A stretch of 64,000 nucleotides of DNA. Origin: Nitrospirota bacterium (GTDB taxonomy: Bacteria; Nitrospirota; Thermodesulfovibrionia; Thermodesulfovibrionales; Dissulfurispiraceae). Within the stretch, counting starts at the first letter, position 1; each line of letters begins with the position of its first letter. A model generated the notes under the pieces. The model was not told where the DNA came from. It saw only the letters and a list, made by a program, of their open reading frames with translations, and did not search any database. Of this stretch, positions 7,507 through 33,792 are shown piece by piece. The position numbers and the translations under genes were made by a program. The stretch lies in the NCBI GenBank assembly GCA_963710375.1, contig CAVPZX010000002.1, positions 992,001 through 1,056,000 on the forward strand, given 5' to 3'.

Positions 7507-9919
<2,413 letters not shown>

Positions 9920-9931
9920 GTGAAGCATGCT

Positions 9932-10000
9932 TGTCGGTTAACGCATAAAGTGAAAAACTTAACACATATGATGAAAAAAATTAACGCATAAAATGAAAAA
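9932..10000 (+). repeat. gyrB-proximal transposon end: TGT plus three packed TnsB-type sites
   Basis: TTAACGCATAAAGTGAAAAA (9938), TTAACACATATGATGAAAAA (9959), TTAACGCATAAAATGAAAAA (9981). Confidence 0.9.
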
Positions 10001-10298
10001 AGTTAGTTCTGTGTCGGTTAAGTTAAGGGATGTGTCAGATAAAGGATACAAAAATAAGGAAAGAAGCAAACGATTTAAAGAAGGGTTTCTGACTGACGAA
10101 GACATAAAGCGGATAAGGAAGAAACTGGGATTCACCCAAAAGCAGATGGCTGAAAAATTAGGGGTTGGTCTGAAGACTTTCGCTCGTTATGAGAACCTCT
10201 CAGTCCGCCAGGGCAAGGCGATGGATAATTTGTTGAGGATATTCGATAAATATCCAGAAGTTATGGCAGTTTTTGATAAAAAAATTGCATCTTCTTAA
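9993..10298 (+). CDS. XRE/HTH protein resembling the C-terminal domain of MqsA/HigA-type antitoxins; start uncertain
   Basis: LTDEDIKRIRKKLGFTQKQMAEKLGVGLKTFARYEN; the ATG overlaps the transposon end. Confidence 0.6.
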   Translation: MKKVSSVSVKLRDVSDKGYKNKERSKRFKEGFLTDEDIKRIRKKLGFTQKQMAEKLGVGLKTFARYENLSVRQGKAMDNLLRIFDKYPEVMAVFDKKIASS

Positions 10299-10315
10299 TT
10301 ATCGGGCAAATTAAA

Positions 10316-11252
10316 ATGTGTTCTATAGCCGCTGATGAGGCTCAATTTAGATTGCCAGAAGATGGCAATACCTACACGGCTGAAATAATTGATCGATGTC
10401 TGGATCTTATTTTTCATGGTATTTGGTCAGGTATCGATCAAATGCGACTGCGTAGATGGTTTGCAAACTTTTGTACGGACGAGGAAAAGTATTTCGCTGC
10501 TTGTATCCTTGATTCTTTAATTTATCGCTCTGAAGATCAAACTATATCTTTAATATGGCACCTTTTTCAGAGAATTTTACCTGATCTGATTCGCTATGAC
10601 AGTAGTCCCATTGGCGATACTATTGACTGGCAGAACGCTTTAAAGAGGGAAAGTTCTGCTACGGATCCTCTTATAAGACTAGTCACAGTTGTCAGAAGAT
10701 CTGATCCCCCTACGAAAAGCGCATATGTAATAGCTAGGCTTATGAAAAGGCACCTCTTCATAGATGAGCGATGGATTATTAAGCCATGGGAGGTCTCAGA
10801 TAAAATTAAACAGGGTGTGAAAATATTTCTTTTTATTGATGATTTTCTAGGGACTGGTGATCAATTCACTTCTTTTTTTAAGAGTGAGGACTTAGTTAAA
10901 CAATTGCCTCATATTTATGCCGCCTATGTCCCGCTTGTTGCTCATCAAACGGGAGTGAAACATTTGCGAGATACGTTTAGCGGTCTTAGAGTGACTTCAG
11001 TTGAAACTCTTGATGATTCTCACAATATTTTCGGAAACGACAGTAGTTGTTTTAAGGATGGGACTAACACTCCTGATATAGCTAAACAATTTTATTATGA
11101 GTCTGTTGCGAACAAGAAAGATGTTTATTTCGGAGACGGGTTATGGAGATCTCGGCTTGACATATGCGTTTTCTCATGCTGCTCCTGATAATTGTTTGCC
11201 TCTGCTCTGGTGGCCTCATGCTGTTTCGTGGTCTCCACTCTTTGATAGGTGA
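10316..11252 (+). CDS. Phosphoribosyltransferase-like protein (conflict-effector type), frameshifted near 11100-11135
   Basis: PRPP-loop FLFIDDFLGTGDQF; alternate frame gives GYGDLGLTYAFSHAAPDNCLPLLWW...WSPLFDR, stopping 3 nt before the next ATG. Confidence 0.75.
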
Positions 11253-11255
11253 AAT

Positions 11256-13244
11256 ATGAATAGGCTAAAGACGTCTTTGCAAGATGTTTTTTCAATGAAT
11301 CGTGCTGAGGAGATTGGCTACGACGTATGGCGTCATTTTGTAGTTCCGCCCTTTTTTAATTATCTGGACCTATACACTGCCAGAAAGCCACGGGTAATCA
11401 TTGGCGGCAGGGGTTGTGGCAAAACAATGCTTCTGAGGTACCTATCGCATAAGAGCATGTTTTCACCTAATCGTGAGAGTATTCCGGAAAATGCTCTTTC
11501 CCATATTGGACTTTTTTGGCGTGCTGATACCCAATTCTGCAGCGCAATGAGGAAGCGTAATGTGCCTGAGGATGTATGGGAGTCAGCGTTTGGCCACTTA
11601 GCTGCACTTATATTGGGAATTGAGGTGCTTGATAGCCTTGATAGCATCGCACTCAGCAGATCCGGAGCTCTTAATCCTGAAGATGTGGAGAATATTGATT
11701 TCGGGATGCTACAGTCCTTTGATGATAAACTCCCTTCAACTGCTCATGAGCTCCGAAAGACGCTTAATAGTTATCTGTTAGAATTAATAACTTGGGTAAG
11801 TGATGTGAGAAAAGCTAGGGAACCTAATTTTTTGCCGGGCAAGTCATTTGTTTCAACTCTAATCACAATATTACAAGAACAACTGTCGGTACTGTCCAAG
11901 TCAACTTTTTTTGTTTATCTTGATGAATATGAAAATCTTTGTGATTACCAAAAGCGCATTATAAACACTTGGTTGAAACATAGTGAAGTTCCACTCATAT
12001 TCAATCTTGCAATGAAGAGAAATGCTTTTATTACCAACAAAGAAACTGTAGGAGCGGAATTACTCTCTGATATACATGATTATCGAGTTCATGATTTGGA
12101 AGAATATCTTGACAACGATGCTTATCCTATATTTGCTGCTGAAATACTTTTTTTGCACCTATCATTAACGGAGTATGATGACATTCCCATTGATGTAAAT
12201 ATGTTACGCGATCCAGATTTATTGGTGAAAAGAAAAGAAAAGATATATATAGAAAACATACTGGGAGCTGCTCAAAGCCTGTTCCCTGACATCTCTTTGT
12301 CTGAATTGGCAAGACTAGTATTTCAAGACAAAGCACTGTATTCAAAGCTGAATGAGCGCATTCAACAAGCGTTAGCTCATCGGAAATCTGATATTACATC
12401 AAATCGATTTATTAAACCGGATTTTGCAGAGGCGTCAATTGTGAATCAAGCCTTGCTTTACCGAAACAAATTGCAACCCGGAGAAATTATGCAAGAGATG
12501 GATATGTTGGCCGAAGGGAAGGACAATCGCTATACGGGAGATACGGATTGGATTCATAATAATTTTGTTGGTTGTCTCCTTCAATTGTACTCACCTTATT
12601 CAAGAGCGTGTCCTTTTTATGCCGGCTTTAAAACATTCTGCAAACTTTCGAGAGGCAGTATTAGGCATTTTTTGGAACTTTGTCACAATTCCATTTATCG
12701 AGCAATAGATGACGTCGAGGAATTTAAGAAACCAGTTGACTACATTAGGCAGGCGGAAGCGGCAAGCCAAGCTAGTGCCACTTTTTTACGCGAAATTAAG
12801 AGCTTTGGACCTTTGGGCAATCAGTTGCATGCTTTTGTACTTCGATTAGGCTCTCTTTTTGCTTTGGCTCATCGTCGCCCATCGCAAAGTGAATCAGAAC
12901 AGTCTCATTTCTCGATTAAAAATGGCAGAAGTCCATTAACTGCTGAGGACAACAATTTTCTTCTGGAGGCTGTTAAATGGTCAGTATTATTTGAACATTC
13001 TGGTACCAAGAAAAAAGCAGAATACATGCCGCAAACTATCGAATATGTTTTAAATCCTATTTATACACCATATTTCCATATAAGTTATCGCAAGAAAAGA
13101 AAGCTAGAGCTGTCAACTGATGAGGTTATAAGTTTAATTCGAGGCGATCTGAATGAGGTTACAACTCTTTTGAAACAATATGCGACCTCGTGGTTTGTTG
13201 ACCCTAACGAGGCTGCCCCTGTTCCTTTGTCGCTTTTCGAGTAG
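11256..13244 (+). CDS. P-loop ATPase, ORC/CDC6-like or STAND-like, with a helical C-terminus
   Basis: Walker A GGRGCGKT, Walker B FVYLDEYEN, later LSRGSIRHFLELC motif. Confidence 0.75.
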   Translation: MNRLKTSLQDVFSMNRAEEIGYDVWRHFVVPPFFNYLDLYTARKPRVIIGGRGCGKTMLLRYLSHKSMFSPNRESIPENALSHIGLFWRADTQFCSAMRKRNVPEDVWESAFGHLAALILGIEVLDSLDSIALSRSGALNPEDVENIDFGMLQSFDDKLPSTAHELRKTLNSYLLELITWVSDVRKAREPNFLPGKSFVSTLITILQEQLSVLSKSTFFVYLDEYENLCDYQKRIINTWLKHSEVPLIFNLAMKRNAFITNKETVGAELLSDIHDYRVHDLEEYLDNDAYPIFAAEILFLHLSLTEYDDIPIDVNMLRDPDLLVKRKEKIYIENILGAAQSLFPDISLSELARLVFQDKALYSKLNERIQQALAHRKSDITSNRFIKPDFAEASIVNQALLYRNKLQPGEIMQEMDMLAEGKDNRYTGDTDWIHNNFVGCLLQLYSPYSRACPFYAGFKTFCKLSRGSIRHFLELCHNSIYRAIDDVEEFKKPVDYIRQAEAASQASATFLREIKSFGPLGNQLHAFVLRLGSLFALAHRRPSQSESEQSHFSIKNGRSPLTAEDNNFLLEAVKWSVLFEHSGTKKKAEYMPQTIEYVLNPIYTPYFHISYRKKRKLELSTDEVISLIRGDLNEVTTLLKQYATSWFVDPNEAAPVPLSLFE

Positions 13245-13255
13245 GAGGGTTATTC

Positions 13256-14158
13256 TTGAAAATCACAATGCAGGAGTGTGACATGTCTGCGAAGCTTTGT
13301 TTTTTGAAAGATGATATTGCCTTAATGGGGGTATGCCTTGATGATAGAGGCGAGGCTGCAAAGAAATTTTTACATGACAGGGCTGATGATATATATGCAT
13401 TAGAATATAACGTGGACGATTTTACTCTCAGTGTTAATGGATCAGTTATAAATGCCGAGAATATTGACGATTTTCTCCATCCGTTTATAGGAAAATCGAT
13501 AGTGTTGGAAACTACTACACTTGGCTTTGTAGAAATTTTTTTATGTTGCAGGGCCCTTAAGAATTTAGGGATTCCAAAGTTTGATTTGATATATGTGGAA
13601 CCTCACGGTTACAACAGTCCTCGTAGGACTGCTTCACTTCTTAATAAACGAGATTTTGAGCTTTCTGGCGAGGTTCCAGGGTACCGGGCTATTCCGGGCG
13701 CAGCGATTATGTTGACAGATAGGCAGCCGCAATTAGGCGTATTTTTTCTGGGTTACGAAGAAAGGCGGCTTGAACAGGCCCTTGAAGATTATCAAATGAT
13801 TCAAACTTCTCGTTGCTGCTCGGTGTTCGGTGTTCCAGCATTTAAGCCTGGATGGGAAATGGATGCTTTTGCAAATAATATTAGGGTTATTCGAGATAAA
13901 AATGTCAGGGGCGGGATAAAATTTTGTGGTGCTGAGAATCCTGCTGCTGCTGTAAGTCTTCTTACTGATATTTACAAGGGACTCGAACCAAATGAAAAGA
14001 TGTTTATTGCACCTTTAGGAACAAAACCTCACGGCATAGGAGTTGCCTTGTTCGCTTCTGTCCACAAAGATGTAGGCATTCTTTACGATCATCCGAGACG
14101 GCGACATGGACGCAGTAGTGACGTGTCCAGGTGGCATTTGTATACGGTGGAATTTTAG
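13256..14158 (+). CDS. Uncharacterised Rossmann-like, possibly CARF-like protein
   Basis: Alternating beta/alpha pattern; IVLETTTLG, YVEP, FFLGYE, IAPLGTKP motifs; RBS GGAGG. Confidence 0.5.
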   Translation: MKITMQECDMSAKLCFLKDDIALMGVCLDDRGEAAKKFLHDRADDIYALEYNVDDFTLSVNGSVINAENIDDFLHPFIGKSIVLETTTLGFVEIFLCCRALKNLGIPKFDLIYVEPHGYNSPRRTASLLNKRDFELSGEVPGYRAIPGAAIMLTDRQPQLGVFFLGYEERRLEQALEDYQMIQTSRCCSVFGVPAFKPGWEMDAFANNIRVIRDKNVRGGIKFCGAENPAAAVSLLTDIYKGLEPNEKMFIAPLGTKPHGIGVALFASVHKDVGILYDHPRRRHGRSSDVSRWHLYTVEF

Positions 14159-14210
14159 ACATGATTTCTTGTCGGTCCCAATCAACTGCCTTAATCTTTT
14201 ACCTGAATGA

Positions 14211-14843
14211 TCAAGTATGTAGGGGTTTGTTGTGCCTGAGCTGCCCAACACATAAACGGGACCAGCTTTCCATTTTGCTTTTATAGCGGGATAATTTCTC
14301 GTATGAAATAAATCTGCAATCACTTATTGACTCTTCTGTTGATTTAATATTGGTGTCAGTAATAGTCCAAACTTCAACTACGCCGAAGTGTACACGACCG
14401 ACTGCGGTGCTGATGTCATTTATATAGCCTATTATTTGTTGAGTATCAATTAACGTTAAAGGTAAGAATACTTCTTCTTTAATCTCTCGAAGTGCTGACT
14501 TTCTTAATGTTGCCATAAAATCGATTTTCCTTTTACTTTTTACTATATCTTTTAATTCTACATGCCCACCAAGACCGATTGACAACTGTTCATGTAAACG
14601 TTTTTCTTTTCCTTTTATGGAACGTTTATACATTAAAAGCGAATTACTTTTCTTAAGTATTATGTAGGGAATAATCTGCCGGAAACCTGGGTCATACTCG
14701 ATGACTGAGCGTGGTGCAAACCACACGGGGCCTATTTGCAGCATTTCTGAAAGATCGAGCTGAGAAACGGGAATAAAGCCCTGAGTTTTTGTTTTTTCTT
14801 TTAAGATTCTTGTTTCTATACATAATACGCTTTCCCTTTCCAT
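14211..14843 (-). CDS. NUDIX-family hydrolase (YmaB/COG4112-like)
   Basis: EYDPGFRQIIPY, EKRLHEQLSIGLGGHVE, ALREIKEEV, VGRVHFG; ATG overlaps the MTase stop. Confidence 0.75.
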   Translation of the reverse strand: MERESVLCIETRILKEKTKTQGFIPVSQLDLSEMLQIGPVWFAPRSVIEYDPGFRQIIPYIILKKSNSLLMYKRSIKGKEKRLHEQLSIGLGGHVELKDIVKSKRKIDFMATLRKSALREIKEEVFLPLTLIDTQQIIGYINDISTAVGRVHFGVVEVWTITDTNIKSTEESISDCRFISYEKLSRYKSKMESWSRLCVGQLRHNKPLHT

Positions 14844-16087
14844 TAGTCTTTGGAACTCGTGCAAAGAGAGGGTTTTATGGAGGGAGAGGGAATATTTTCA
14901 TTTCCTAATTCATATAAAGGGAAAGAAAATAAATCTCTCTTACTTATTACCTGTGCACATACTCCATGGGCTTGAGCGCTTAACCAGTTCTGACCCTCGT
15001 AAGACGCAAACGAATCAAACGCTATCTTTCTAAATACTTTCCCCACCCGTATTCTAATTATACAATCGGTAAGCCAGCAAGTACCTGACTTAACAAACGT
15101 CACTTTTCCTATGCATCGTTTCCCCACCCGAGCAAGTAAAATATCACCTTTTCTTGCGATGATACCTTTTCCGGAAGCCTTATCTCTGAATTTTACCCCA
15201 TTTTGAAATAATTCTGGAAAATCCGATGTGTGAAAAAAGGGCAGTTTTGTCCCCAATAATTCTTTATGTGTAAAGCTGCCTCTGACTATTTCGGCGCCGA
15301 TGTCAGACAGTGTTAGTAATGTTTTTTGGGGAGTATTTCTTTGCATCAAATTATAGAAAGTGAAATCCATCCGGCGTAGCAAGTTGTCTACTGAAACAAA
15401 TATTGCCTTTTTGCAGATAGCCGCATCATCAGCCAAATATAAGGGGATTCTTGACAAAGGTTCTGCGTCTTTTCTGATTAAGAGAATATGAGTCCTGGCC
15501 TCTGTTTTTGTAAAGATTTTATCTGGCAACTGAATTACTTTAAATACCTGATGGTTTTGAAGTAATGCTTCGCGAAATAAAACATAATTGTGACCAGTCA
15601 ATAAACTATCGGGGAGAATTATCCCCATCTCTCCCCCCTTGCGGAGCATCTGAAGATTTTGTGCAAGAAAGACCAAGTCAGATGTTAATGTAGGCAATTT
15701 AGTACATGTTGATAAACCGGCGCACTTAAAAATGTCGTTTAAATGGATGTTATTTTCTATTTTAAGGTATGGCGGATTACAAATAGCGACATCTACACTC
15801 CCGATACTTAGCTTTAACTCCTGAGGTAATTTATGAGATAGCCCGTTTATATTAAATAATTTTGCAAAAGGGAAATCCTTTTTTAAAATGCTTATTCCTG
15901 ATGAGTCAATCTCTGCAGCATAGTATTTGGCTCTTTGCCAGCGGTCATGAGCTGCACGTAACAGTGAACCTCTGCCCGCCCCTAGCTCTAATATGTGCCT
16001 AGGTTCATTTTGCGGTATGCTATCTACAAGCAATCTTGCTATTTGCCTCTCTGTATAATAACAGGCAAGAGTATTCATAAACTCCAC
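14843..16087 (-). CDS. N6-adenine DNA methyltransferase with a C-terminal TRD-like region
   Basis: Motif I LELGAGRGSLL, motif IV ICNPPY, IILPDSLL, F..TEA.T. Confidence 0.85.
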   Translation of the reverse strand: MEFMNTLACYYTERQIARLLVDSIPQNEPRHILELGAGRGSLLRAAHDRWQRAKYYAAEIDSSGISILKKDFPFAKLFNINGLSHKLPQELKLSIGSVDVAICNPPYLKIENNIHLNDIFKCAGLSTCTKLPTLTSDLVFLAQNLQMLRKGGEMGIILPDSLLTGHNYVLFREALLQNHQVFKVIQLPDKIFTKTEARTHILLIRKDAEPLSRIPLYLADDAAICKKAIFVSVDNLLRRMDFTFYNLMQRNTPQKTLLTLSDIGAEIVRGSFTHKELLGTKLPFFHTSDFPELFQNGVKFRDKASGKGIIARKGDILLARVGKRCIGKVTFVKSGTCWLTDCIIRIRVGKVFRKIAFDSFASYEGQNWLSAQAHGVCAQVISKRDLFSFPLYELGNENIPSPSIKPSLCTSSKD

Positions 16088-16088
16088 A

Positions 16089-16319
16089 TTAGAAGGTCTC
16101 GGTATCTTTAATTAACTTATCCAATGTAAGACCTAAAGCGTCAGCAATCTTTTTCATTCTTAAAATACCCGGATCTTTTGTGGCGCCATTCTCAATTTTC
16201 AAGAGCCACGAATATGTAATTTCAGCCTTTCTTGCCAATCCTTCTTGAGTAAATCCTTTTTTTTCTCTTTGTTTCTTAACGAGATATCCAATAGCTTTAT
16301 CCGGCGTTGCATCTTCCAA
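16089..16319 (-). CDS. XRE-family HTH regulator (controller-like)
   Basis: REKKGFTQEGLARKAEITYSWLLKIENG...P....KIADAL; directly upstream of the MTase. Confidence 0.85.
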   Translation of the reverse strand: MEDATPDKAIGYLVKKQREKKGFTQEGLARKAEITYSWLLKIENGATKDPGILRMKKIADALGLTLDKLIKDTETF

Positions 16320-16332
16320 AACATTTCCTCGT

Positions 16333-16354
16333 TACTATCAAAATAAGGATAGTA
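16333..16354. promoter_or_regulatory. Putative operator palindrome upstream of the XRE gene
   Basis: TACTATC-N8-GATAGTA. Confidence 0.45.
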
Positions 16355-16585
16355 TTAAACAGCTACTCCTTTACTAATTGCTGTATATTGCTACCCTAAA
16401 AAAACTATCCGTATAATACTACCAATTAATTTTTTTTTCAATAGCCTCAGTGAGGTTTGCTATAAATATTCATGAAGGTAGCTTAGGTGGAAAGCACCTC
16501 TTGTCTATAGCTTCCTCAAGGGTACCACTGGTTTGCCTCTTAAGGCACATATAAGATTTTTAACGTTTTGAAGTATACAAATGAA

Positions 16586-16623
16586 AAGCAGGGGGATCAT
16601 CACATTTAATGATCCCCCTGCTT
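16586..16623. terminator. Stem-loop, probable terminator of the sigma-like gene
   Basis: 15-bp perfect stem AAGCAGGGGGATCAT / ATGATCCCCCTGCTT. Confidence 0.65.
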
Positions 16624-16681
16624 ATAATGGAGGCTGGCGGGCCATGATTGCAAAATTTATTTTTAGCCTGACAAGGTCAGA

Positions 16682-17341
16682 TTAATTATAATTTTCCTTA
16701 CAATCCATTTCTTCTGGGACCGATTCAGCGATTAATTCCCAGTGCGGCTTCCGATAAATGGATTGGGGTTTAAATCTCGTGAAGTCTTGATACTCAAGTC
16801 CTTTCCGCCGGACGATGGCATTTATTTGAGACTTTGCTTTTTTGATTTTTCTCTCTGCTGTACTCTTAGAGCAGCTGAATTTTTTTGCTACCTGCTCGTA
16901 CGTCAGTTTTTCGCCATAATACTTCAGGAGCATCTGGCGTGTTTTCTTTTCGTGGCCTGCAAGCAGAGTATCAACAAATGTTTTGACTTGTGCCAACAAT
17001 AGCCTGTTCAGGATATTTTCCGCTCTTAAGGGATATTCATGCTGTCCGGAAAAACCACGGGGAGTAACTTCGTCACTATAGCATTCATCCTGAGGCGCGG
17101 CTAATTCTCCTATATCGTCAACATATACCTCTTTTCCCTTTCTCTTACGGTAATCACTTCTAACCTTATGACGAACTTTTCGGAGATGACATTTAAAAGC
17201 GTCTCCTCGTGTCATAGAAGGATCTGCCCTGTAATAAAAAGTTTCCCTGCCCATCAGATATGTATCCGCAATGATGTCATGATTGTTTCTGCTGTAATAT
17301 CCAAGCCCATAGGCTTTACCGAGCTCGTCATTATTGAGCAT
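16682..17341 (-). CDS. Sigma-70 region-4-like HTH protein (ECF-like)
   Basis: RQMLLKYYGEKLTYEQVAKKFSCSKSTAERKIKKAK. Confidence 0.55.
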   Translation of the reverse strand: MLNNDELGKAYGLGYYSRNNHDIIADTYLMGRETFYYRADPSMTRGDAFKCHLRKVRHKVRSDYRKRKGKEVYVDDIGELAAPQDECYSDEVTPRGFSGQHEYPLRAENILNRLLLAQVKTFVDTLLAGHEKKTRQMLLKYYGEKLTYEQVAKKFSCSKSTAERKIKKAKSQINAIVRRKGLEYQDFTRFKPQSIYRKPHWELIAESVPEEMDCKENYN

Positions 17342-18056: not shown

Positions 18057-18704
18057 GTGTCGGTAAGAAGAATAACAAACGGCGGCAGGAAGGTGATTGG
18101 GAAATTCCCGAGTCTTAAGATGGGGAGGGCCGTATGGTGGGAGTCGCAGCTTGAGCGAGATTATATTTATTATTTGGAGGTGGACCGAGACATTGTTTCG
18201 TACAAAGAGCAGCCTCTGAAGATCCGCTATCTGCTGGATAGGAAAATTCACCACTATACACCGGACTTCCTGGTCTGGCGGACAGACAAACAACAAATAG
18301 TCGAGGTGAAGGATGAGGAAAGCGCCGGCAAGGAAGAGTACAGGCATTTGTTCCATATTGTTGCCCCGCTTTTCATGGAGGAAGGATATGAATTTGTGGT
18401 AGTGACTGAGAAGACAATTCGTCTCAGGCCTCTTCTGGATAATTTAAAACTGCTGCACAAATATTCCAGAACAATAATTTCGCATAAGCACCAGATTGAC
18501 GCGTATGCTTTTTTCTCAAGCGACGAAGACGGTACGCTGGGAAAGTTGGCGTCCTTCCTCAGAGCCAAGGGATCAGGCGCTGAAATAGCCTATGCCCTAA
18601 TTTATTGGGGTGTCATTGCGGTCAACCTTGCAAATCCTATTAATTCACAAAGCCAGGTGAGCCTGGCGGATGCATCGATGTTAACAAAGGAGAAGTGCGC
18701 GTGA
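18057..18704 (+). CDS. tnsA: TnsA endonuclease
   Basis: GKFPSLK...ESQLERDY...EQP...YTPDFLV...VEVK (PD-(D/E)xK). Confidence 0.9.
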   Translation: MSVRRITNGGRKVIGKFPSLKMGRAVWWESQLERDYIYYLEVDRDIVSYKEQPLKIRYLLDRKIHHYTPDFLVWRTDKQQIVEVKDEESAGKEEYRHLFHIVAPLFMEEGYEFVVVTEKTIRLRPLLDNLKLLHKYSRTIISHKHQIDAYAFFSSDEDGTLGKLASFLRAKGSGAEIAYALIYWGVIAVNLANPINSQSQVSLADASMLTKEKCA

Positions 18705-22019: not shown

Positions 22020-22033
22020 GGGGAATTTAAGAT

Positions 22034-23941: not shown

Positions 23942-24059
23942 AGGAAGAGGTTAGATGTTTAGAATAGATATGTTGGAAATGCTGCTTATCTAAAAGGAGA
24001 CGGCTTTCAGGGTTGTTAATGACGAAACGATATCTGGATTTTGAAGATGAAACGATCCA

Positions 24060-24611
24060 ATGAAATGGAAAGAGGAGAAAGAAATGGTCAGAAAAGAAAA
24101 GACATACAGGTTTTTAGCCATAGCATATAATGTCGAACCCGAAACAGTTGACTACAAGACAGTCCGGTTGATGAGGATCAAAGCATTTCGATCCGACACA
24201 GCAGAAAAAATCGCAAACAGGCGAATCGCGAAGCTGGAGAAGCGGACAGGCTGCGAGTGGACACTCCACAGGGAACCAGGCAAAGTATCGGACCGCGCAG
24301 AGCGGAGGCTCAGGGCAGTCAGATTTCTAAGCCGGGCAAATGATTGTATCTTGGAGAGTATTAAATCGCGGAAAGATCTCCGAGGCGAGATTGATAACAT
24401 GTCAAAGACAGCGGAATATACGTCTGCAAAATATCCTGAACAGATACTCATGAAAGTCGCGTTGCTGCGTCGGAAGATTGGAGATACGGAATTACTTCGG
24501 GAAGCCAGCGAGCTCGCCTCCTTGGCCTCGTTGGCGTCGGCTGGGAAGCTGCGGCCTCCAGTTAACAAAGGGAAGTTGCTCTCGGATATAATAATTGAGG
24601 ATCGCCAGTGA
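24060..24611 (+). CDS. Hypothetical basic protein
   Basis: 183-aa ORF; only the tail (GKLRPP...LSDIIIEDR) weakly recalls antitoxin C-termini. Confidence 0.4.
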   Translation: MKWKEEKEMVRKEKTYRFLAIAYNVEPETVDYKTVRLMRIKAFRSDTAEKIANRRIAKLEKRTGCEWTLHREPGKVSDRAERRLRAVRFLSRANDCILESIKSRKDLRGEIDNMSKTAEYTSAKYPEQILMKVALLRRKIGDTELLREASELASLASLASAGKLRPPVNKGKLLSDIIIEDRQ

Positions 24612-24672
24612 GTGCTTCCGACATAGCCACGATGATAATGCTGGAATTTTCTAATTATCAGTGGCACTATAA

Positions 24673-25194
24673 ATGAGGGTAGCTCCCGGGAGAAAAAAAG
24701 CTTTACCTGTGGATATGGACGAATCTCAGTTAAATCGCCTCAGAAGTTATGCATGGAACTACTTTGCTTATCATGCAGAGCAGAGAATTAAGACTTTTAA
24801 CTTTTATATTATTCTTGTAGCAGTAATCATCGGCGGCTGCGGAACAGCTCTATCTAATATAAATAAAGAATACTTTAGATTGCTTCTTTCTCTTCTCGGG
24901 TTCCTTCTCACAATTATTTCAGTCGCGTTCGCTTTCCTCGATCGAAGAAATAAGGAATTAGTTCGAAATGGTGAAGCTGCATTAAGGTACCTTGACGAAT
25001 TCGAAGAACTACCAAGCGAAGGATCTGCGCCGCATGTTTTACAATTATTTTCAAGGGATGATCATATCTGTTCGAATAAGCCGAAAGGTCTATCCATCAG
25101 GGCTCATATTTCTTACTCCCACGTATTTAGGAGTATTTTTCTTGTTTTTGGCGTGATAGGCCTGATTATAGGCATAGCGTGTTTGATATATTGA
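24673..25194 (+). CDS. Small 3-TM membrane protein
   Basis: Three hydrophobic segments; YAWNYFAYHAEQR and FLDRRN motifs. Confidence 0.6.
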   Translation: MRVAPGRKKALPVDMDESQLNRLRSYAWNYFAYHAEQRIKTFNFYIILVAVIIGGCGTALSNINKEYFRLLLSLLGFLLTIISVAFAFLDRRNKELVRNGEAALRYLDEFEELPSEGSAPHVLQLFSRDDHICSNKPKGLSIRAHISYSHVFRSIFLVFGVIGLIIGIACLIY

Positions 25195-25343
25195 GACTGG
25201 AGCTCAGGCAAGATTTTAGCGGCATATGGTTTTGACACTTTTGGGTACTAATTAGGTATCGAATGGTGACCCATTAACTGTCCCGCAGGAGAAGCTGTTA
25301 TGATGTCCAAACAGATCGGAAGATAAGAAAGGGTGTATTACTC

Positions 25344-26360
25344 ATGACCCCCAAACCTCTTCGTATAGGCAATGCGGCACATAGGTTTAAGACATATGTA
25401 ACGCCAGATTATGTATCAATTTCAGATGGAGAAATAGCTCATTTTGAGACTTTTCTACGATTCCTTTACGAAAAGTATTTAGAGGGAAGTGTATTGCTTA
25501 CCTACAGAGGAGAAGATTTTAGAAATATTACGCGTAGATTAACCAACATCACAGTCCCCGATATAGAAATTTACAATCGAGCTTTCTATTTTGGCGATAA
25601 AGCAAGGCACTACCAATCGGATGTTTTTAATCCTGATAGCAGGAATTTTCTTACGGGTATAAATGACTCATCTGAGTCAACCATTGCGTATATTTTTAGC
25701 CGCATAAATAATGTTGTTACGTCAGAAAGCAATCTGAGAAGATTGGTATCTCAGAAATTTAGTAAGTTTTTCTCAAAAAATGATAATAAAGAACAATTTG
25801 TTTTGGCTATAAATCGCTGTGATAGCGAGGAAGAGAAGGTTAAGTTACGTGATTACTACCTTTATTTCTTGCATACTGCCGGGTCAAAAGGTATAAGAAA
25901 AGAGGCGTTCTTTGTTTCAACATCCTCAAGTAAGGTTGTTGCACGCGGCTTCGCCCGAAATCGCAAACTAATTTTTCATTATTATATTCCTCAACCGTAT
26001 TATTGTCATGCTGTTGCACCTTGGATTATTGAAGAACATCAACATATAGTAAATAAGCGGAAGCTGCCTATCTATCAACCTTTCGGACTTTTCGCTAACC
26101 AGACAGAAGTAGCAGTTAAAGGGGCTTTGTTTCCTCAATTCTTATATGGTATCGAATTGGTTGAGGGTAATCAATTGATGGTGAATCCTCATATTCTTTC
26201 CTTGAGAAAGAATCAGTTCAAGGAAGCTATAAAAACTGGCGTGACAATTGATCAGAGTGATTTTCATAATAAAATATTTCAAACTGGTTTTATTCGTTGG
26301 GTTCAAGCAGACGAAAACGGCCATTACGAGCAGCATGACCTCTGTCATCACATGATATAG
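25344..26360 (+). CDS. Putative ADP-ribosyltransferase-fold protein (R-S-E type)
   Basis: LTYRGE ... FVSTSSSKVVARGFA ... NQTEVAV in the expected order. Confidence 0.5.
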   Translation: MTPKPLRIGNAAHRFKTYVTPDYVSISDGEIAHFETFLRFLYEKYLEGSVLLTYRGEDFRNITRRLTNITVPDIEIYNRAFYFGDKARHYQSDVFNPDSRNFLTGINDSSESTIAYIFSRINNVVTSESNLRRLVSQKFSKFFSKNDNKEQFVLAINRCDSEEEKVKLRDYYLYFLHTAGSKGIRKEAFFVSTSSSKVVARGFARNRKLIFHYYIPQPYYCHAVAPWIIEEHQHIVNKRKLPIYQPFGLFANQTEVAVKGALFPQFLYGIELVEGNQLMVNPHILSLRKNQFKEAIKTGVTIDQSDFHNKIFQTGFIRWVQADENGHYEQHDLCHHMI

Positions 26361-26520
26361 AATGACTATGGGTGACACACTGGCAGCTTGCGGTGTTACT
26401 ATGCACTATCGAAGAATGGAGACCAACATACCATATGTGGCGGACGCATGAACTTTGGCGACTGTAAGGCCGCAGATGTTGAATGTGTATAAGAGAAGGT
26501 TGAAATAATACATGGCCCAG

Positions 26521-26865
26521 TTATCGCAGCACTGATTCCAAATCCATTTCGTCTTTTATCATCCCTACAGTGTCACCCGGTATCAACAGAACCAGCTTCT
26601 GTAAAGGCTTTGAAGGGGGTATCTCGTCTTTTATCACTTGTCTCGCCAAGGAAGATGCACGGAGTTCTTTGCGTCGCTGCCGCCAGGGTTTTACATAGTC
26701 GAGATAGAGGTTGTCGAAATAGGTGGAATTATTTTGCTGCCATTGCTGCTGGGCCTGTTTCTTCCTTGCCCGCTTGCATTGCTCCCTCTGGCAGACTTTC
26801 TGCCTTTGGCCAACTCGTTTATCAGGTGTGAAATACCGCCCACAGTGCATGCATCGCTTGACCAA
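26521..26865 (-). CDS. Small Cys-rich basic protein, likely a mobile-element remnant
   Basis: CMHCGRYFTPDKR..QKVC....C; RBS GGAGG; appears truncated. Confidence 0.45.
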   Translation of the reverse strand: MVKRCMHCGRYFTPDKRVGQRQKVCQREQCKRARKKQAQQQWQQNNSTYFDNLYLDYVKPWRQRRKELRASSLARQVIKDEIPPSKPLQKLVLLIPGDTVGMIKDEMDLESVLR

Positions 26866-27262
26866 TGATTACCTCCAGTTACTTTGTTTGTGGTAATCAT
26901 TGTATGTAAAGGTGGGTTTCTAAGGTTGGGGTTTCAGTCTACCAAAAAATGCCAACTGTAAATTTCAGGCTGGTTCCATCGGTGGCGCTTTCGGTTCCTC
27001 CGCTATCAGTCCTTTTACTCCGGCCCCCACAGACGGGTAGAGGTCCATGCGCCTTCACATATTGCTTATCAGATAATAAAAGAAATAATTACATATGGAA
27101 GAAAAAATGCCGATGATTCTGTAATAGAAGAATGGCGAGAATATAGTGCCAAATATTTGAAGCTACCTGTGGAATGAAGATGGCAATAAAGAGGCTGGTT
27201 AATGAATTTTACAATTTGGACGATTTCACAGAGAACTATGCGGTCTCTCCTGGTTATGCAAC

Positions 27263-29899
27263 TTAGAGTAAACTCTTAGCGCACCGGAAACCAGCATTCC
27301 CGCAAAGGTAGCCAGGGAGGTACGAGTTGATGCTGGCGCATCGGCAGTAAGCGGATCCATCGGCCCAAGAACCGCCATGAAGCGCTTGCCTGTCCTCGGT
27401 CCACTCCCACATGTTACCGGCCATGTCGTAGCAGCTGTAAGGACTTACGCCGTTAGAATACTTATTGACGGGTGTTGTTTTTCCAAGACCCGACTCTGTA
27501 GTGTTGCACCTCTTCCGATCGAATTGATTGCCCCAGGGATAGACCCGTCCGTCAATGCCTCTAGCAGCCTTTTCCCACTCCTCCTTGGTTGGTAGACGCT
27601 TGTCAGCCCATTCAGCATAGGCACGGGCACCATGCCAGAAGACAAAAATCACTGGGTGCTTCTCAAAGCCTGACTTGACCACAAACCGCTTTTTATTAAA
27701 ACGAATGTGACAATGTTCCCCCGCGTAGATCCCTTTCAGGTCTATCCATTGTTCTTTTTCTACAGCGGTGCAACCCATGGCATTCAAAAAATCGGTGAAT
27801 TCAGCATTCGTCACAGGGTATTTATCTATGAAAAAACTCTCCTTGATGTTGGAAATTCGAATATTATCATCCGCGCCTATTATGAACTGGCCTGATGGAA
27901 CGAAGACCATATCGGACGGTTCCTCAATCCCAACCGTTGGTTCAATATATTCATAAACAGAGGGCGTTATCATGTAGGACACAAAGAGGGCGATCTCATT
28001 AGTGATATTTTTTTTCCGTGCCATATTCTTTGGTATTTCCTTTGCTATCTTGCATGCGACAAAATATTCTATAAATGATCGATGAGCGAAGGCATAGTAC
28101 CCCTCCGCATCATTGCGTTGGAGAAAGGTAGAATTTCGTATCTGATAGTCCAGATTATCGAGCGACAGCCTCAATGTATCCTTAACAGGCGCATCGAAAA
28201 ACCTATTAATGGCCTCCAGCAGGGTATTAAAATGTAGCTTATACTTTTCTCTTGTGAACATATAAAAGGCAAGCTCCTCCATAAAGAGCATGATGCCTTT
28301 GGGCAGCTTTGCTTCTGACCGCTTCTGTTCACGTTGTTCCCATGCCTCTGTAATTACTTGGTATAGCCTTCCTGAGGTTATCGTTCCTTTTGCGTTTCTG
28401 ATTGCCTCGATATCTTTGACGATCATCTCGATCAGTATGGGACGGCTTGCGAGATCCTTCATATCGAAGACTTTTGTTAAGGTATTTCTCCAAAACTGCT
28501 CTGCCTCTTTTTCTCCGAGGCAAAGACTCAAATAGGTTTTTATTTGGGAATCGGCGAATGGGCATATATAGACCCTTTCAAAACGGGGTCTTTGGAACCC
28601 GCTCGGCCCTGCTTGAGCGCCCTGTACGAGAGCAAGGTGATCTTTTTCTTCATAAACACTTCTAAAAAATTGCGTCCTGCTCGTCAGGATCACTTTGTGA
28701 TATGGCGCGGCAATCATGGACAGGTTCTCGATTTCCCTGAGAACCGTTTTCTTGTCGAACGTTACCGATAATTCATCAAAACCGTCTAGGATGAGGATTA
28801 TCTCACCCTCTTTCCCCTTGGTTCTGGCATCAATCTCGGCTTGGGCAGCCTCCTGCCAGCCTCTTGTCCGGACTTGGCTGAGGCTCGCGATAACAGGGAT
28901 GTATTTCGGTCCTTCAAGATCAGAGGCGAGTTTGTAGCAGAATGACGTTTTGCCGATGCCATAGTCGCCGAGCACTGCCAGGAGCTTCCGATTCGGGTCC
29001 TTCAGCCATTCATGGGTATACGTGTGCAGCAACTTCGTACTCTTTTGCTTGATGTCTTCAGCATGGCAGAACGGTTCAATGTAATGCTTTGGCACATATT
29101 CGCAATACTTTCTTTGCTCACTTGGCGGCGGAGGCGCCTCTAAGGGAGGATCCAAGACAATTATTGTTCTCGGGAAGCCGCATGCTGATAGCCATTTATT
29201 AACGGGTTTAAGAATCCGGTTTGTTTTCTTCTCCTCTTCTTCTAAGCGTTCACCTATTATCGAATTACCCTTCCAGTGCCATATGACTATCCCTTGGTTA
29301 ATCTCAACTGACGTGATATGCTCCCTGATCCCGCCCTGATCCATCCGGATATAAGCCTGATCCATCTCATCGGCAAGCCGTAATAATGCAGTTATGCGAA
29401 TAAGGTTGATGGGTTCCTGACAAAGCTGTTCGTCAGCGAAATTCTCGGGGAGGTCGGCAATAGGGCAAATGTCCTCAGTGGAATGTCCAAAACAGACATT
29501 AGCGACGGCTTCAGCAATTGGCGGTATCATCTTCGTGCGATGATGCGGACGAAATGGCCCGAAGAAGTATTTATCTGGATCATTTAAAATATATTTCCTA
29601 GATCGCAGGGAATGATCTTTGGGGTCAATGCGGTCGCTTTCGTCGCGATAGCCGATATCGTGCAGATAGACGGCATAGAGCAGGATGAAAATCTCAACTG
29701 GATTGAGACCTCGTTTGAAAGCCTCGGGGATAAGCTGATCGAGTTTGACTTCCAACCTTTTGGAATGATCGATCCCATTCTTGTCGATGCCGTCAAGCCA
29801 TTCAGAAGCATTTTTTTTCACCTTTTCGATATGTTCGTGAAGGTTGACTCCCCCATCGCAAGTTGTTTTCCCCAACAGCAGTTCATGCAATGCGCCCAT
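27263..29899 (-). CDS. HD-phosphohydrolase + NACHT/STAND NTPase + FGE-sulfatase (SUMF1-like) fusion
   Basis: H..S, LHDIG, LADEMD; Walker A GDYGIGKT, Walker B ILDGFDE; PVTN, RLPTKEEWEKAARG, YPWGN, DMAGNMWEW, GFRC; RBS AAGGGAG before ATG 29899. Confidence 0.85.
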   Translation of the reverse strand: MGALHELLLGKTTCDGGVNLHEHIEKVKKNASEWLDGIDKNGIDHSKRLEVKLDQLIPEAFKRGLNPVEIFILLYAVYLHDIGYRDESDRIDPKDHSLRSRKYILNDPDKYFFGPFRPHHRTKMIPPIAEAVANVCFGHSTEDICPIADLPENFADEQLCQEPINLIRITALLRLADEMDQAYIRMDQGGIREHITSVEINQGIVIWHWKGNSIIGERLEEEEKKTNRILKPVNKWLSACGFPRTIIVLDPPLEAPPPPSEQRKYCEYVPKHYIEPFCHAEDIKQKSTKLLHTYTHEWLKDPNRKLLAVLGDYGIGKTSFCYKLASDLEGPKYIPVIASLSQVRTRGWQEAAQAEIDARTKGKEGEIILILDGFDELSVTFDKKTVLREIENLSMIAAPYHKVILTSRTQFFRSVYEEKDHLALVQGAQAGPSGFQRPRFERVYICPFADSQIKTYLSLCLGEKEAEQFWRNTLTKVFDMKDLASRPILIEMIVKDIEAIRNAKGTITSGRLYQVITEAWEQREQKRSEAKLPKGIMLFMEELAFYMFTREKYKLHFNTLLEAINRFFDAPVKDTLRLSLDNLDYQIRNSTFLQRNDAEGYYAFAHRSFIEYFVACKIAKEIPKNMARKKNITNEIALFVSYMITPSVYEYIEPTVGIEEPSDMVFVPSGQFIIGADDNIRISNIKESFFIDKYPVTNAEFTDFLNAMGCTAVEKEQWIDLKGIYAGEHCHIRFNKKRFVVKSGFEKHPVIFVFWHGARAYAEWADKRLPTKEEWEKAARGIDGRVYPWGNQFDRKRCNTTESGLGKTTPVNKYSNGVSPYSCYDMAGNMWEWTEDRQALHGGSWADGSAYCRCASINSYLPGYLCGNAGFRCAKSLL

Positions 29900-30196
29900 A
29901 GAAGCTCCCTTAAAGGTGAATGTGAAAGCCAAATCAATATCTTTCAAGTATTGTACATAAAACATCAGATGAATTGGAAAAGAACGAGAGGTGTTGCAAT
30001 AGAGACGATACCATATGGAAATTAATTTAATATTGAAAAAGTTGAACGATGAATGGTAATTGCGGCTATAGCTGATAGCTAGCATGTGATCGACCGGGCC
30101 TCGAATAGGATCCAATATATTTTAGAGCAAATACTCGAAATTAAAATAGAATTTGCATTTTAGCCTGGGTCAACAATTGAACGGTGATGTGTGGAA

Positions 30197-30330
30197 TTTT
30201 TCATTTTTTGCGCAAAATCTTCCGGAATTTTTCACTTTATGTGCAAAATATTTTCATTTTATAAGATAATAGGTTTTGTAACTTATTGAAATTACATCGG
30301 GGCAACTTTCACTTTTTGAGAAAACCTATA
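30197..30330 (-). repeat. Internal Tn7-like distal-type end (three sites, IHF-like gap, terminal site; ends CCTATA rather than CCTACA)
   Basis: Same layout as 33649-33780: TTTCATTTTTTGCGCAAA, TTTCACTTTATGTGCAAA, TTTCATTTTATAAGATAA, TAACTTATTGAAA, TTTCACTTTTTGAGAAAACCTATA. Confidence 0.8.
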
Positions 30331-30340
30331 GCATGCTTGT

Positions 30341-30410
30341 TGTGGGTTGACGCATAAACTGCAATTCCTGACTCATAAGTTGCAGTAAATTGACGCATAA
30401 GCTGCAATAA
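30341..30410 (+). repeat. Internal Tn7-like proximal-type end of a related element
   Basis: TGTGGG then TTGACGCATAAACTGCAA, CTGACTCATAAGTTGCAG, TTGACGCATAAGCTGCAA with the same 21/22-bp spacing as 9932-10000. Confidence 0.8.
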
Positions 30411-31104
30411 GCTTTTGTTGAACGTGTGCAGAAAAAAGTAGATGTTGTGACTGAACACCAGATAATGGTACTAGCACACTAACTAGGGTGGCAGGATAAA
30501 AGCCAGAAGCTGTAAAAAAAGAGAGGCTCCACGTCTTCCCTCGTACCTTGCACTATTCGTTTGTTTGGTACACCCTAATCCGCTTTGTTCAAATTGTTGC
30601 AGCAGTGAAGATTTTCGAGAGAAGTCCACAGACCGGGCCAGAATAAGCAACGGGGATACTCATTAGTGAAAAATTAAACAGGTTTATCCCCCGTTTGCAT
30701 GAATTTGTTGTACGCCATCTTGCCATAATGCTGTCAAGTTCAAATAGTAGAAGGTAGTGTCTCAGTTTGATTTTTTGTATAATATAGTTCAGGAGGTGAT
30801 GTCTTTGAAAGCAATTTTGATGTAACGCCTGAAGCTCCTTAATAACGCAAAAGTATTTATGTATTTATGATACGAAGGGGAGCGCCACCGACAGGGCTGT
30901 TGGGATTGCCAACTTAGATGCTCACTCATCTAAAATGTTTGAGGGTGGTTATTGCAATGGTATGTCATTTTATCAGACGGGAACGGGTGCGTAGAGTGAG
31001 TAAGCGCCCGGCTTCTACTTTTTTTCTTGACAGGGAACGTTCGTTCACCTATAATTATTAAAAAGAACTTTACATTTTGATTATAGTAGATTAATGTTAA
31101 ACAA

Positions 31105-31770
31105 ATGATACTAACAGACAAGCTCATAAAAGATGTATGTAGTAAAGGGGATATCAAGATTGTGCCATTTGAGGATTGTCAAATTGAACCCGCCTCATAT
31201 GATTTGCGAGTAGGGAAACACGGTGCTACGACAAGTACAAAAAAAATTGTTGACATAGAAAAGCAAGGATACATGCTGATTGAACCGGGGGATTTTGCTA
31301 TTGTCGGTGTTTTGGAAGAGATTACTCTTGGATCAAAATATGCGGGACGTATAGGCTTGCGCTCAAAATTTGCCCGAAAGGGATTAATAGCAACAGCAGG
31401 GTCGCAAGTTGATCCGGGCTATCACGGTCGTCTTAAAATTGGACTTACCAACTTGACACCTAAAGCAATATCTTTGCCGTTTAAGGATGATTTTATAACA
31501 TTAGAGATTCATGAACTTACAGAACCGGCGTTAAAACCATATGATGGTCCCTATCAAGATCAATTAGATTTAAGTCCAGCGGATATAGAAGCAGTTACCG
31601 AAGGGAGCGGAATGGCACTTTCAGAAATGATGGTGACATTAAGCTCTCTGAGTCAAAACGTGGGAAGGTTAAGCACGGATTTTGAAGTATTCCAAAAAAC
31701 GCTTAAAATAGTTGGCGGAATCCTAAGTTTACTTATTGCCATAGCAACCATTATTGTTGCTTTAAAATAA
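31105..31770 (+). CDS. dCTP deaminase (dUTPase-fold) homolog with a C-terminal hydrophobic helix
   Basis: MILTD, EPASYDLRVG, RSKFARKGL, VDPGYHG; tail IVGGILSLLIAIATIIVALK. Confidence 0.8.
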   Translation: MILTDKLIKDVCSKGDIKIVPFEDCQIEPASYDLRVGKHGATTSTKKIVDIEKQGYMLIEPGDFAIVGVLEEITLGSKYAGRIGLRSKFARKGLIATAGSQVDPGYHGRLKIGLTNLTPKAISLPFKDDFITLEIHELTEPALKPYDGPYQDQLDLSPADIEAVTEGSGMALSEMMVTLSSLSQNVGRLSTDFEVFQKTLKIVGGILSLLIAIATIIVALK

Positions 31771-31901
31771 ACTTGTCTTAAAACAACAATAGAATTTCCT
31801 CAAAGTCCCAAGCATGATGGACCTGCCCCCAAAAAACTGTGCCAGCGATAATTTGAGTTTTCTGGCAAAATTAACTACCCAAAGAAAGGGAGGATTTTGC
31901 C

Positions 31902-32168
31902 ATGAAGAAGTCGAAGTATACGGAAGAACAGATTGCTTTTGCGTTGAAGCAAGCAGAGACTGGTACACCGATAGCCGAAGTGATCCGGAAACTTGGGATC
32001 AGTGAGCAGACCTTTTACAACTGGAAAAAGAAGTATGGCGGACTGGGCCCCAGTGAGCTAAGGAGGCTGAAGCAACTGGAAGAGGAGAACCGGACGCTCA
32101 AGCAGATGATTGCAGACCTGAGCTTAGATAAGCACATGCTGCAGGAGGTACTCAGAAAAAAATTCTAA
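31902..32168 (+). CDS. IS3 transposase OrfA
   Basis: MKKSKYTEEQIAFALKQAE, TFYNWKKKYGG, LEEENRTLK. Confidence 0.92.
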   Translation: MKKSKYTEEQIAFALKQAETGTPIAEVIRKLGISEQTFYNWKKKYGGLGPSELRRLKQLEEENRTLKQMIADLSLDKHMLQEVLRKKF

Positions 32169-32997
32169 GGCCTGACCGAAAGCGTAAACTGGTGAAATAT
32201 CTCCAGGAAAGTTTCAGGGTCAGTGAGCGGAGGGCATGCAAGGCATTAGCTTTTGGCCGTACCACTCACCGATACCGGAGCAAACTAAAGGGCAGGCCGA
32301 ACTCATCATGAGGATCAAAGAGCTTGCTGCTGTTAGAGTGCGTTATGGATACCGTAGAATCCACGTGCTTTTAAGACGAGAGGGGTGGAAAGTAAACCAT
32401 AAGCGGGTGCATCGTCTATATCTGCTGGAGGGGCTGAATCTCAGGACGAAGAGGCCTAAGCGGAAGCGCCCTGCAATGGTAAGAATTCTCCGAGAGCCAG
32501 CAGTAACAGTGAATACGTGTTGGAGCATGGACTTCGTTTCTGATAGCCTATTCAATGGCCGGCGGTTCAGATCATTAACTGTAGTCGATAATTTTAGTCG
32601 GGAGTGCTTAGCGATCGAGGTGGATCAGGGCATCAAAGGGGAGCAGGTAGTAGCGGTGATGAATCGCTTGAAATACATCAGGGGAGTACCCAAGAGCATA
32701 CGGGTTGACAACGGCCCGGAGTTCGTCTCGAAAGCATTAGATCAGTGGGCGTATGAAAACGGGGTTACGCTGGATTTCTCGCGGCCTGGAAAGCCCGTGG
32801 ATAATGCCTTTGTCGAGTCCTTCAATGGAAGCTTCCGGGACGAGTGTCTGAATGTGAACTGGTTTCTCTCGATAGAAGATGCTAAGATGAAGATCGAGAC
32901 ATGGCGGAAGGAGTATAACGAGTTCCGTCCCCATAGTTCTCTGGACGATATGACGCCCAGTGATTTTGCCAAAGCGGAGGCCGCAGCGGCGGCTTAA
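32157..32997 (+). CDS. IS3 transposase OrfB (integrase core), with an extra frameshift near 32285
   Basis: YGYRRI, WSMDF, VDNGPEF, PGKPVDNAFVESFNG; the N-terminal SERRAC segment lies in another frame. Confidence 0.85.
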
Positions 32998-33053
32998 AAA
33001 GGCCGGAAAACTCAACATTACGGTGGACCACTTTTCGGGGTACAGTCAAACTT

Positions 33054-33356
33054 ATGAGCATTCAAACAACTGGTTGGTCCAACAAGGGGGGGACCTCTGA
33101 CAGAGCGTGCGCCTGTGGAACGTGGAAGCAACACTGGATAAATTTTTCTAAGAAAACATGGCCCGCAAGTTGCTCAGTTGAAAAATGTTCCAATACGCCT
33201 ACCATAGGTGGTCACGTCATTAATCCGAGTGTGGACGGAGAGCGGATTGTTCCTATGTGCGACTCATGTAATAAGCTCAGCGGTACTTTCACATTGAAGG
33301 GTGGCGTTACTCTTCCAAGCGCTAACCAATCACAAACCTGCGCGAAAAAGGTATAA
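33054..33356 (+). CDS. Small Cys-rich HNH/His-Me-finger-like protein
   Basis: CAC, CSVEKC, GGHV, IVPMCDSCN. Confidence 0.5.
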   Translation: MSIQTTGWSNKGGTSDRACACGTWKQHWINFSKKTWPASCSVEKCSNTPTIGGHVINPSVDGERIVPMCDSCNKLSGTFTLKGGVTLPSANQSQTCAKKV

Positions 33357-33424
33357 CACGTCGCTTCCAAGGGATGCTGCTGCGTGCCTTTATCGCGCAG
33401 CATCCCTTAACTGCAAGGTTACCC
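33351..33424 (+). other. attC-like (integron cassette) palindrome
   Basis: TAAC overlapping the stop, inner IR AAGGGATGCTGC / GCAGCATCCCTT, closing GTTA. Confidence 0.5.
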
Positions 33425-33558
33425 CATATGTTTCCGTTAATCTGCATTAGCTTCAATTAATAAGATCAAACGATAAATCGGTGTACAAGACAAAGGAGTG
33501 GAGTATGAGTCTTGTTAACAGCTTCGGTCTCTTCCATTGCTACCCCTGCTAACCTCTC

Positions 33559-33616
33559 GCCGGAATGAGTGGCAGGAATAAATTGGAATAGGTGGCAGGA
33601 TTCCTCGGAATCTCCA
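33559..33616. mobile_element. IS21-family terminal repeat remnant
   Basis: GGAATGAGTGGCAGGA / GGAATAGGTGGCAGGA tandem repeats ending GGAATCTCCA; no istA/istB seen. Confidence 0.6.
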
Positions 33617-33648
33617 GAAATCAGTGAATATTTTTGTCCATTGGGGAG

Positions 33649-33780
33649 TTTCATTTTATACGTTAATTTTTCAGGATATTTTCACTTTATGCGTTAAAGC
33701 TATTTCATCTTATACGTTAAATTCCTCCATAACTGATTGAAATTTGGTCGCCTTAATTTCATTTTATGTGTTAACCTACA
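33649..33780 (-). repeat. Distal transposon end: three sites, IHF-like site, terminal site, ACA
   Basis: Sites at 33649, 33679 (exact inverse of 9938-9956), 33703, 33757; TAACTGATTGAAA 33730-33742; followed by CATGCT. Confidence 0.9.
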
Positions 33781-33792
33781 CATGCTGTTATT

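Follow-up and report, generated by a model that had tools for sequence, protein, structure and literature searches.

A stack of CRISPR-less Tn7-like elements stands directly behind gyrB in the 64,000-nucleotide stretch of DNA analyzed here (the window), positions 992,001 to 1,056,000 of contig CAVPZX010000002.1 (assembly GCA_963710375.1) from a Nitrospirota bacterium of the Dissulfurispiraceae. We put at about 78% the probability that this end of gyrB is a recurrent site holding stacked elements and that a long TniQ protein likely selects it, with predicted winged-helix repeats acting on the last gyrB codons. That gyrB is a recurring attachment site of such elements is in itself highly probable; given the site, TniQ is, by analogy with Tn7, likely the protein that reads it. 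On the model of Tn7 and its TnsD, the winged-helix repeats of TniQ would bind the conserved last gyrB codons and the bound TniQ would load TnsC, whereupon TnsAB would place the element immediately behind the stop codon with the packed end nearest gyrB. The essential gyrB gene would survive, the site would stay available to the next element, and later elements would insert only a few bases apart. The features of the site and of the element ends are as follows.

7507..9919, + strand: gyrB, the target gene, intact by short-read contigs, with its stop codon TAG at 9917-9919
9920..9931, + strand: spacer of 12 bp after the gyrB stop, ending in GCATGCT, the attachment sequence
9932..9998, + strand: gene-proximal end (right end in the Tn7 convention), TGT and three packed TnsB sites at 9938, 9959 and 9981
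30199..30330, - strand: internal far end, TAT terminus and four TnsB sites
30331..30340, + strand: internal copy of the attachment sequence, GCATGCTTGT, between two facing ends
30341..30407, + strand: second end of the gene-proximal type, TGT and packed sites, belonging to a non-autonomous unit
33649..33780, - strand: outer far end, TGT terminus and four TnsB sites at 33649, 33680, 33703 and 33757
33781..33786, + strand: CATGCT, third copy of the attachment sequence, right after the outer far end

The target was identified as gyrB by models that score above those of parE, and by target gene the element lies outside the parE-targeting group. The genome encodes a single topoisomerase II A subunit, and dnaA and dnaN stand directly before gyrB in the window. 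A broken gyrB was rejected: the apparent frameshift near 8498 is an assembly error, the base being absent from three of four short-read runs (the fourth has no listed piece spanning it). An earlier note on this DNA, made from the sequence alone, stated that the element begins 12 bp past the gyrB stop and leaves the gene intact, and the terminal TGT at 9932 bears this out. It is also correct that the packed end, with its TnsB sites 21-22 bp apart, adjoins gyrB and that tnsABC is directed away from the gene, all tns genes lying on the + strand.

The same note described one element at 9917..33790. This part has to be revised, since the span contains two further ends that face each other at 30330 and 30341. 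The region is a stack, composed of a tns-bearing unit (9932-30330) and a non-autonomous unit (30341-33780). The termini are Tn7-like (TGT...ACA), with arrays of TnsB sites that are packed at one end and spaced at the other. The outer far end is the best sequence match of the end at 9932 (21/24 nt), and the decamer between the facing ends equals the last 7 bases preceding the first end followed by TGT. The outer flanks share 6 bp (CATGCT) and the flanks of the first unit 7 bp, not 5. Three offset copies of the attachment sequence without a clean 5-bp duplication would be left because new arrivals land a few bases apart; a series of insertions whose offsets differed slightly, followed by reshuffling, may be why no single 5-bp duplication fits. 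Alternatively, the transposase may be one that leaves 6-7 bp.

Far ends often terminate in TAT instead of TGT, as at 30330 in the window and in the genomes G328, G433 (two), G429, G386 and G202; in G404 both ends do so. This terminus may be characteristic of the family and not a sign of decay, as it is present even in the G328 element with its intact duplication. To the right of the stack, a GNAT gene (33793-34788) lacks its own upstream region, its similarity to G410 beginning at the ATG. In four of five genomes of the same genus, the gene that flanks the stack on the right is found elsewhere than behind gyrB; the fifth yielded no copy of it. No joint spanning the element occurs in the short-read runs examined, an absence that proves nothing.

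The element was described as CRISPR-less, and no cas genes or array were found within it. Pfam searches detected no Cas protein among 25 open reading frames (ORFs), PADLOC gave no Cas hit for 18 ORFs other than TniQ and CARF models, no 20-mer is repeated on one strand within 9932-33780, and Cas1 was not found in the genome. RNA-guided homing, as in CRISPR-associated transposons (CASTs), was rejected for lack of cas genes and an array. The transposition genes of the first unit are:

18057..18704, + strand: tnsA (PF08722)
18695..20954, + strand: tnsB (rve and Mu C-terminal domains), split into two ORFs through an assembly error at 20619
20958..22019, + strand: tnsC, with a TniB hit and Walker A and B motifs
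22034..23941, + strand: tniQ/tnsD-like selector of 635 codons, PF06527 followed by HTH_17, with five predicted winged-helix repeats

The Pfam hits to a TnsA nuclease, a DDE TnsB, an AAA+ TnsC and a TniQ-domain protein place the unit among Tn7-like elements. A broken tnsB was rejected, the extra base at 20619 being missing from all four runs (4/4); the tnsB tail ORF and tnsB share one frame in G405. The earlier note had named a long TniQ with C-terminal helix-turn-helix (HTH) repeats as the only target selector. The domains were found, but the gene is interrupted by an in-frame TAG at 22904-22906. This codon is also present in contigs of two studies (X1, which may be the source of the assembly, and X3), and the X3 contig, from another study, has no differences over the TAG among the matches listed. 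The amber stop in tniQ is real, unlike the frameshifts in gyrB and tnsB. Because the TAG is real and no PylS scores over the cut-off in the genome, which also removes pyrrolysine read-through, the selector is probably inactive in this population, the amber stop preceding the DNA-binding repeats. The stack, with tnsABC intact, is probably parked unless TniQ is supplied in trans. A functional split into a TniQ part and an HTH part is unlikely, as the stop interrupts the helical core predicted for the protein and translation restarting at 22979 would leave out 25 residues.

An intact homolog, P0001, is 70% identical to the window TniQ. Its predicted model (mean predicted local distance difference test score 78, 8 sequences) consists of a TniQ core, a flexible linker at 324-340 and five helix/strand repeats, and a fold search with it returned TniQ/TnsD structures and weak MerR-type matches. 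In-frame tniQ stops also occur in G763 and in the second copy of G602. Two long TniQs stand in tandem in G875, G602, G760 and L022.

Ends of this type recur behind gyrB in relatives. An end scoring at least 8 bits lies within 30 bp of the stop codon in 15 of 88 gyrB 3' flanks (87 relatives). Thirteen of these 15 lie at +7 to +14, and none was found between 31 and 200 bp. The end matrix was built from 7 ends, taken from the window and from two elements of Blastocatellia; as a control, it matched 3 of 1869 stops in the bacterium's own genome, one of them the present element. G247 and G328 were included because of a prior hit, and 14 of 86 flanks remain when both are excluded; six further genomes searched for gyrB flanks gave no match. 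The genomes are kin and the counts not independent, and the comparison is no formal test. A locus-blind pattern (TGT and three spaced sites) matched 7 times, in 6 of 401 genomes; in reverse, it matched 3 times. Four of the 7 matches show repeat structure, and each of these is at gyrB (two in the window, one each in G328 and G247); the remaining three have no gyrB alongside. The ends recur with constant spacing and orientation relative to a conserved gene, as expected of TnsD-type homing.

The element in G328 has a full tnsABC-tniQ set in the same orientation as in the window. Its near end stands at +13 after GTGTG, and its far end, on another contig, is followed by GTGTG; the two contigs are joined by this shared duplication, not by assembly. 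A clean 5-bp duplication was found in four of five single homologs with both ends (G328, G402, G403 and G875, not G404). As regards gyrB being a recurring attachment site, the earlier inference of a TnsD-recognized site gains from the recurring ends (15/88), the 5-bp duplication in G328, the stacking and a distant lineage at gyrB; its general form is narrowed by the homologs at other loci described below.

Smaller traces were also seen behind gyrB. In G408 (L057; C60 55859-56957), the last 37 gyrB codons are duplicated about 800 bp downstream, and a Tn7-like end stands 12 bp past the second copy rather than past the live gene, which suggests that the 3' end of gyrB was there the integration site of a different element. 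G409 (L055) carries a relic with a 24-bp fused pair of ends, and G433 (L152) and G429 (L158) carry mini-elements of 240-350 bp with both ends present.

Several observations weigh against recurrent homing to gyrB through TniQ. Most gyrB ends are orphans without tns genes downstream. A close TnsC is present in 1 of 67 other genomes of the family, and the long TniQ is full length in 3 of 301 genomes of the order, where only two elements (window and G328) connect the selector to gyrB. The TniQs of these two are 31% identical and form no supported group. The G405 assembly lacks the gyrB end, and no empty copy of the exact site was found. Three solo end-like motifs with one TnsB site each lie elsewhere in the bacterium's own genome (C2:2816, C3:2249 and C2:168365). 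A comparison of 16 occupied with 73 other gyrB ends revealed no codon-level signature (lowest p 0.024 of 66 positions). At the family level, homologous elements do in part sit at unrelated loci: none of the 16 Blastocatellia regions examined contains gyrB, and the 31-35% identical TniQs of this class stand behind other genes. A binding site sought from synonymous gyrB positions gave no signal. Two of the solo motifs are alike, and close to them are small toxin-antitoxin-like genes and insertion sequence remnants (labels by eye).

The many orphan ends and the kinship of the genomes would both fit a single ancient insertion behind gyrB that was inherited and decayed, the ends being its descendants without any repeated homing. 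We regard this as very improbable. The offsets vary from +7 to +14 and the end sequences are of different flavors; G328 has its own duplication; and a lineage with an approximately 30% identical TnsB uses gyrB in another phylum. The window and G433/G429 each hold several ends, and such stacking largely refutes a single insertion.

Blastocatellia homologs of the TniQ use other genes. TniQs at 30-35% identity were found in 15 of 301 genomes of the Blastocatellia class, plus two more. Near ends follow dcd at +7 in G402 and G875 and a sigma-54 response regulator gene at +19 and +22 (G403, G404). In G763, a near end stands at +30 past a gene that is presumably SpoVR-like, by its motif (once). These three genes are candidate further attachment genes of the TniQ family. 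The near end in G793 follows no gene end, and near ends were not found in 10 of the 16 Blastocatellia regions, nor ends in 13 further homolog regions. The Paenibacillus and Paraburkholderia homologs lie on contigs other than that of gyrB. Among 67 regions scanned for tRNA targets, 2 tRNA genes were present, neither adjoining a mapped end. Tandem ends 5 bp apart in G602 (C58 38885-44155) mark another stacked site of this TniQ family.

A distant lineage, with TnsB approximately 30% identical to that of the window, has ends at +5 to +13 of gyrB in six proteobacterial genomes. Three are Bosea genomes with ends at +12, +13 and +12 and two long TniQs; in the two with complete data, the tns genes are directed toward gyrB. 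Far ends of the Bosea elements were not found in 60 kb upstream. In G999 (end at +5) and G1109 (end at +10) the tns genes are directed away from gyrB, and in G1078 (end at +11) they are on another contig. Inspection by eye showed no end at gyrB in three of the six homolog-bearing genomes of the Bosea family (121 searched), and none in the parE flanks of five genomes. Both proteobacterial gyrB elements with both ends found (2/2) have 4-bp duplications, CCTC in G999 (C67 ~192320-211385; L256, L257) and AAAC in G1109 (C1 ~3180858-3194390; L285), whose near end starts with TGA; a term search of the Tn7-like literature for 4-bp duplications gave no match.

The Bosea elements also bear on whether the hot spot reflects a host feature (the replication origin region, transcription end or bound gyrase) rather than reading of the gyrB sequence. 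No dnaA or dnaN hit was found in the 20-22 kb examined around them, although dnaA, dnaN and gyrB are adjacent in the window. A host feature would agree with the missing sequence signature in occupied gyrB ends and with an insertion position that wobbles by about 7 bp. The ends, however, are pegged to the stop codon despite unrelated downstream sequences, with one orientation within the order, and the sister clades keep fixed offsets of their own relative to the stops that end other genes (dcd twice; the sigma-54 regulator). A host feature is an improbable explanation.

Phylogenies were inferred with FastTree or quick LG+G4 runs. The window, G405 and G328 group together in the TnsB (support 99, with L021) and TnsC (97) trees, and in the TniQ tree the window groups with G405, P0002 and P0003. 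One clade of the window and G328 TniQs was not rejected by the approximately unbiased (AU) test (p-AU 0.46; 18/53 rows). A single clade of all gyrB-linked TniQs, in contrast, was rejected (9 rows vs 14, 23 rows in all; p-AU 3e-84). The gyrB target is a property of sub-clades and not of the whole TniQ family, because the Blastocatellia homologs use other genes (dcd, sigma-54 regulator). Judged from these sequences, gyrB would be a target acquired on two or more occasions or an ancestral one from which some lineages later switched, the unrooted tree being compatible with both. The gyrB users branch deeply in either half of the tree, and the non-gyrB users form nested clades. It is a tentative and rather doubtful idea that gyrB was the ancestral site of a cross-phylum TniQ family with tandem winged-helix repeats, the array having been re-tuned several times, to dcd, the sigma-54 regulator and the SpoVR-like gene. 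If true, the array would be a natural modular DNA reader, offering portable insertion behind a near-universal gene.

The low identity of the window and G328 TniQs, with no tree support, leaves some room for another element-encoded DNA-binding protein to give or share the specificity, as TnsF does in Tn6022. The XRE-HTH gene and the sigma70-region-4 HTH gene of the window both have homologs in the gyrB element of G328 (75% and 23% identity). Yet both lie outside the tns operon, the dcd-linked G402 element, too, has a small HTH-like ORF directly within its near end (by eye), no tyrosine-recombinase-like ORF occurs among 25 scanned proteins, and TniQ already has five predicted winged helices. We consider this explanation unlikely and prefer target selection by TniQ.

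TnsD-like proteins bear C-terminal HTH arrays (PMC10293859), and the packed end is nearest the attachment site (PMC11406308). Like prototypic Tn7, the present element has TnsA, TnsB, TnsC and one long TniQ-family selector and lands past an essential gene; as at attTn7 downstream of glmS, the packed end is by the gene, the tns genes are directed away and the site is used in tandem. Unlike Tn7, it targets gyrB, its offset wobbles by several bases and no TnsE was found among the scanned ORFs of the window. The selector C-terminus also differs from that of Tn7 TnsD, being an HTH_17-type repeat array with weak likeness to the solved TnsD (8v32, E 1e-7, profile). The parE-targeting elements (Tn7017; the Acinetobacter parE branch) likewise insert behind a gene for the B subunit of a type II topoisomerase, by a route predicted to be protein-guided (10.1101/2020.07.02.184150; PMC11014353). 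Those of Acinetobacter carry TniQs of ~486 and ~170 aa (PMC11014353), where ours has one of 635 aa, and the target here is gyrB in a genome with only one topoisomerase II A subunit. The nrdB/nrdD-targeting Tn7 elements resemble ours in using housekeeping attachment genes and a TniQ fused to or followed by HTH_17 (10.1101/2025.07.27.667033); they differ in target gene, and the split here comes from a nonsense codon, the P0001 gene being uninterrupted. Tn6022 (TniQ and TnsF) is also CRISPR-less, protein-guided and site-specific, but it breaks comM and needs TnsF, whereas here the gene is spared, the insertion is intergenic and no TnsF-like gene was found, which sets the element outside the Tn6022 family.

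The earlier note knew of no standard attachment site at gyrB, and no source in the literature searched lists gyrB among Tn7 sites; the search did not reach subscription journals, bioRxiv supplements or the Tn7017 paper, which could name it. By term search, 'gyr' and 'gyrase' are absent from PMC10293859 (with 3 supplements), PMC11406308, PMC11014353, PMC9881144, 10.1101/2025.07.27.667033, PMC8649781 (with part of one supplement) and 10.1101/2020.07.02.184150. A gyrB attachment site for Tn7-like elements is apparently unpublished. With it, the known Tn7 safe sites gain an essential gene that is nearly universal. The surprise is moderate, protein-guided homing behind a conserved gene being an established concept to which new sites, e.g. 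nrdB and nrdD, are added regularly. Close sub-clades with different target genes provide natural pairs for studying target change in TnsD-like proteins, and in Nitrospirota and Alphaproteobacteria an intact member could be used for neutral integration.

The gyrB site also gathers defense-type cargo, and the cargo of the element is mostly defense-like. The cargo and other inner genes are:

9993..10298, + strand: XRE/MqsA-like HTH gene; in G328, its 75% identical counterpart comes first inside the end next to gyrB
10316..14158, + strand: PRTase-CE, ORC-CDC6-like ATPase and CARF-like protein (Pfam, PADLOC)
14211..17341, - strand: 217-aa ORF, type II DNA methyltransferase and sigma70-region-4 HTH gene
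24060..30115: 8xMP membrane protein, HD-CE/NTPase/FGE-sulfatase protein and further ORFs
31105..31770, + strand: dCTP deaminase-family gene
31823..33045, + strand: insertion sequence with terminal inverted repeats (HTH_Tnp_1 and rve)

The three-gene unit of PRTase-CE, ORC-CDC6-like ATPase and CARF-like protein is likely a defense system; the extra base at 11102 is an assembly error, being missing from all four short-read runs (4/4). A distant homolog of the sigma70-region-4 HTH gene lies upstream of tnsA in G328. The insertion sequence at 31823..33045 is presumably of the IS3 type, given its HTH_Tnp_1 and rve layout.

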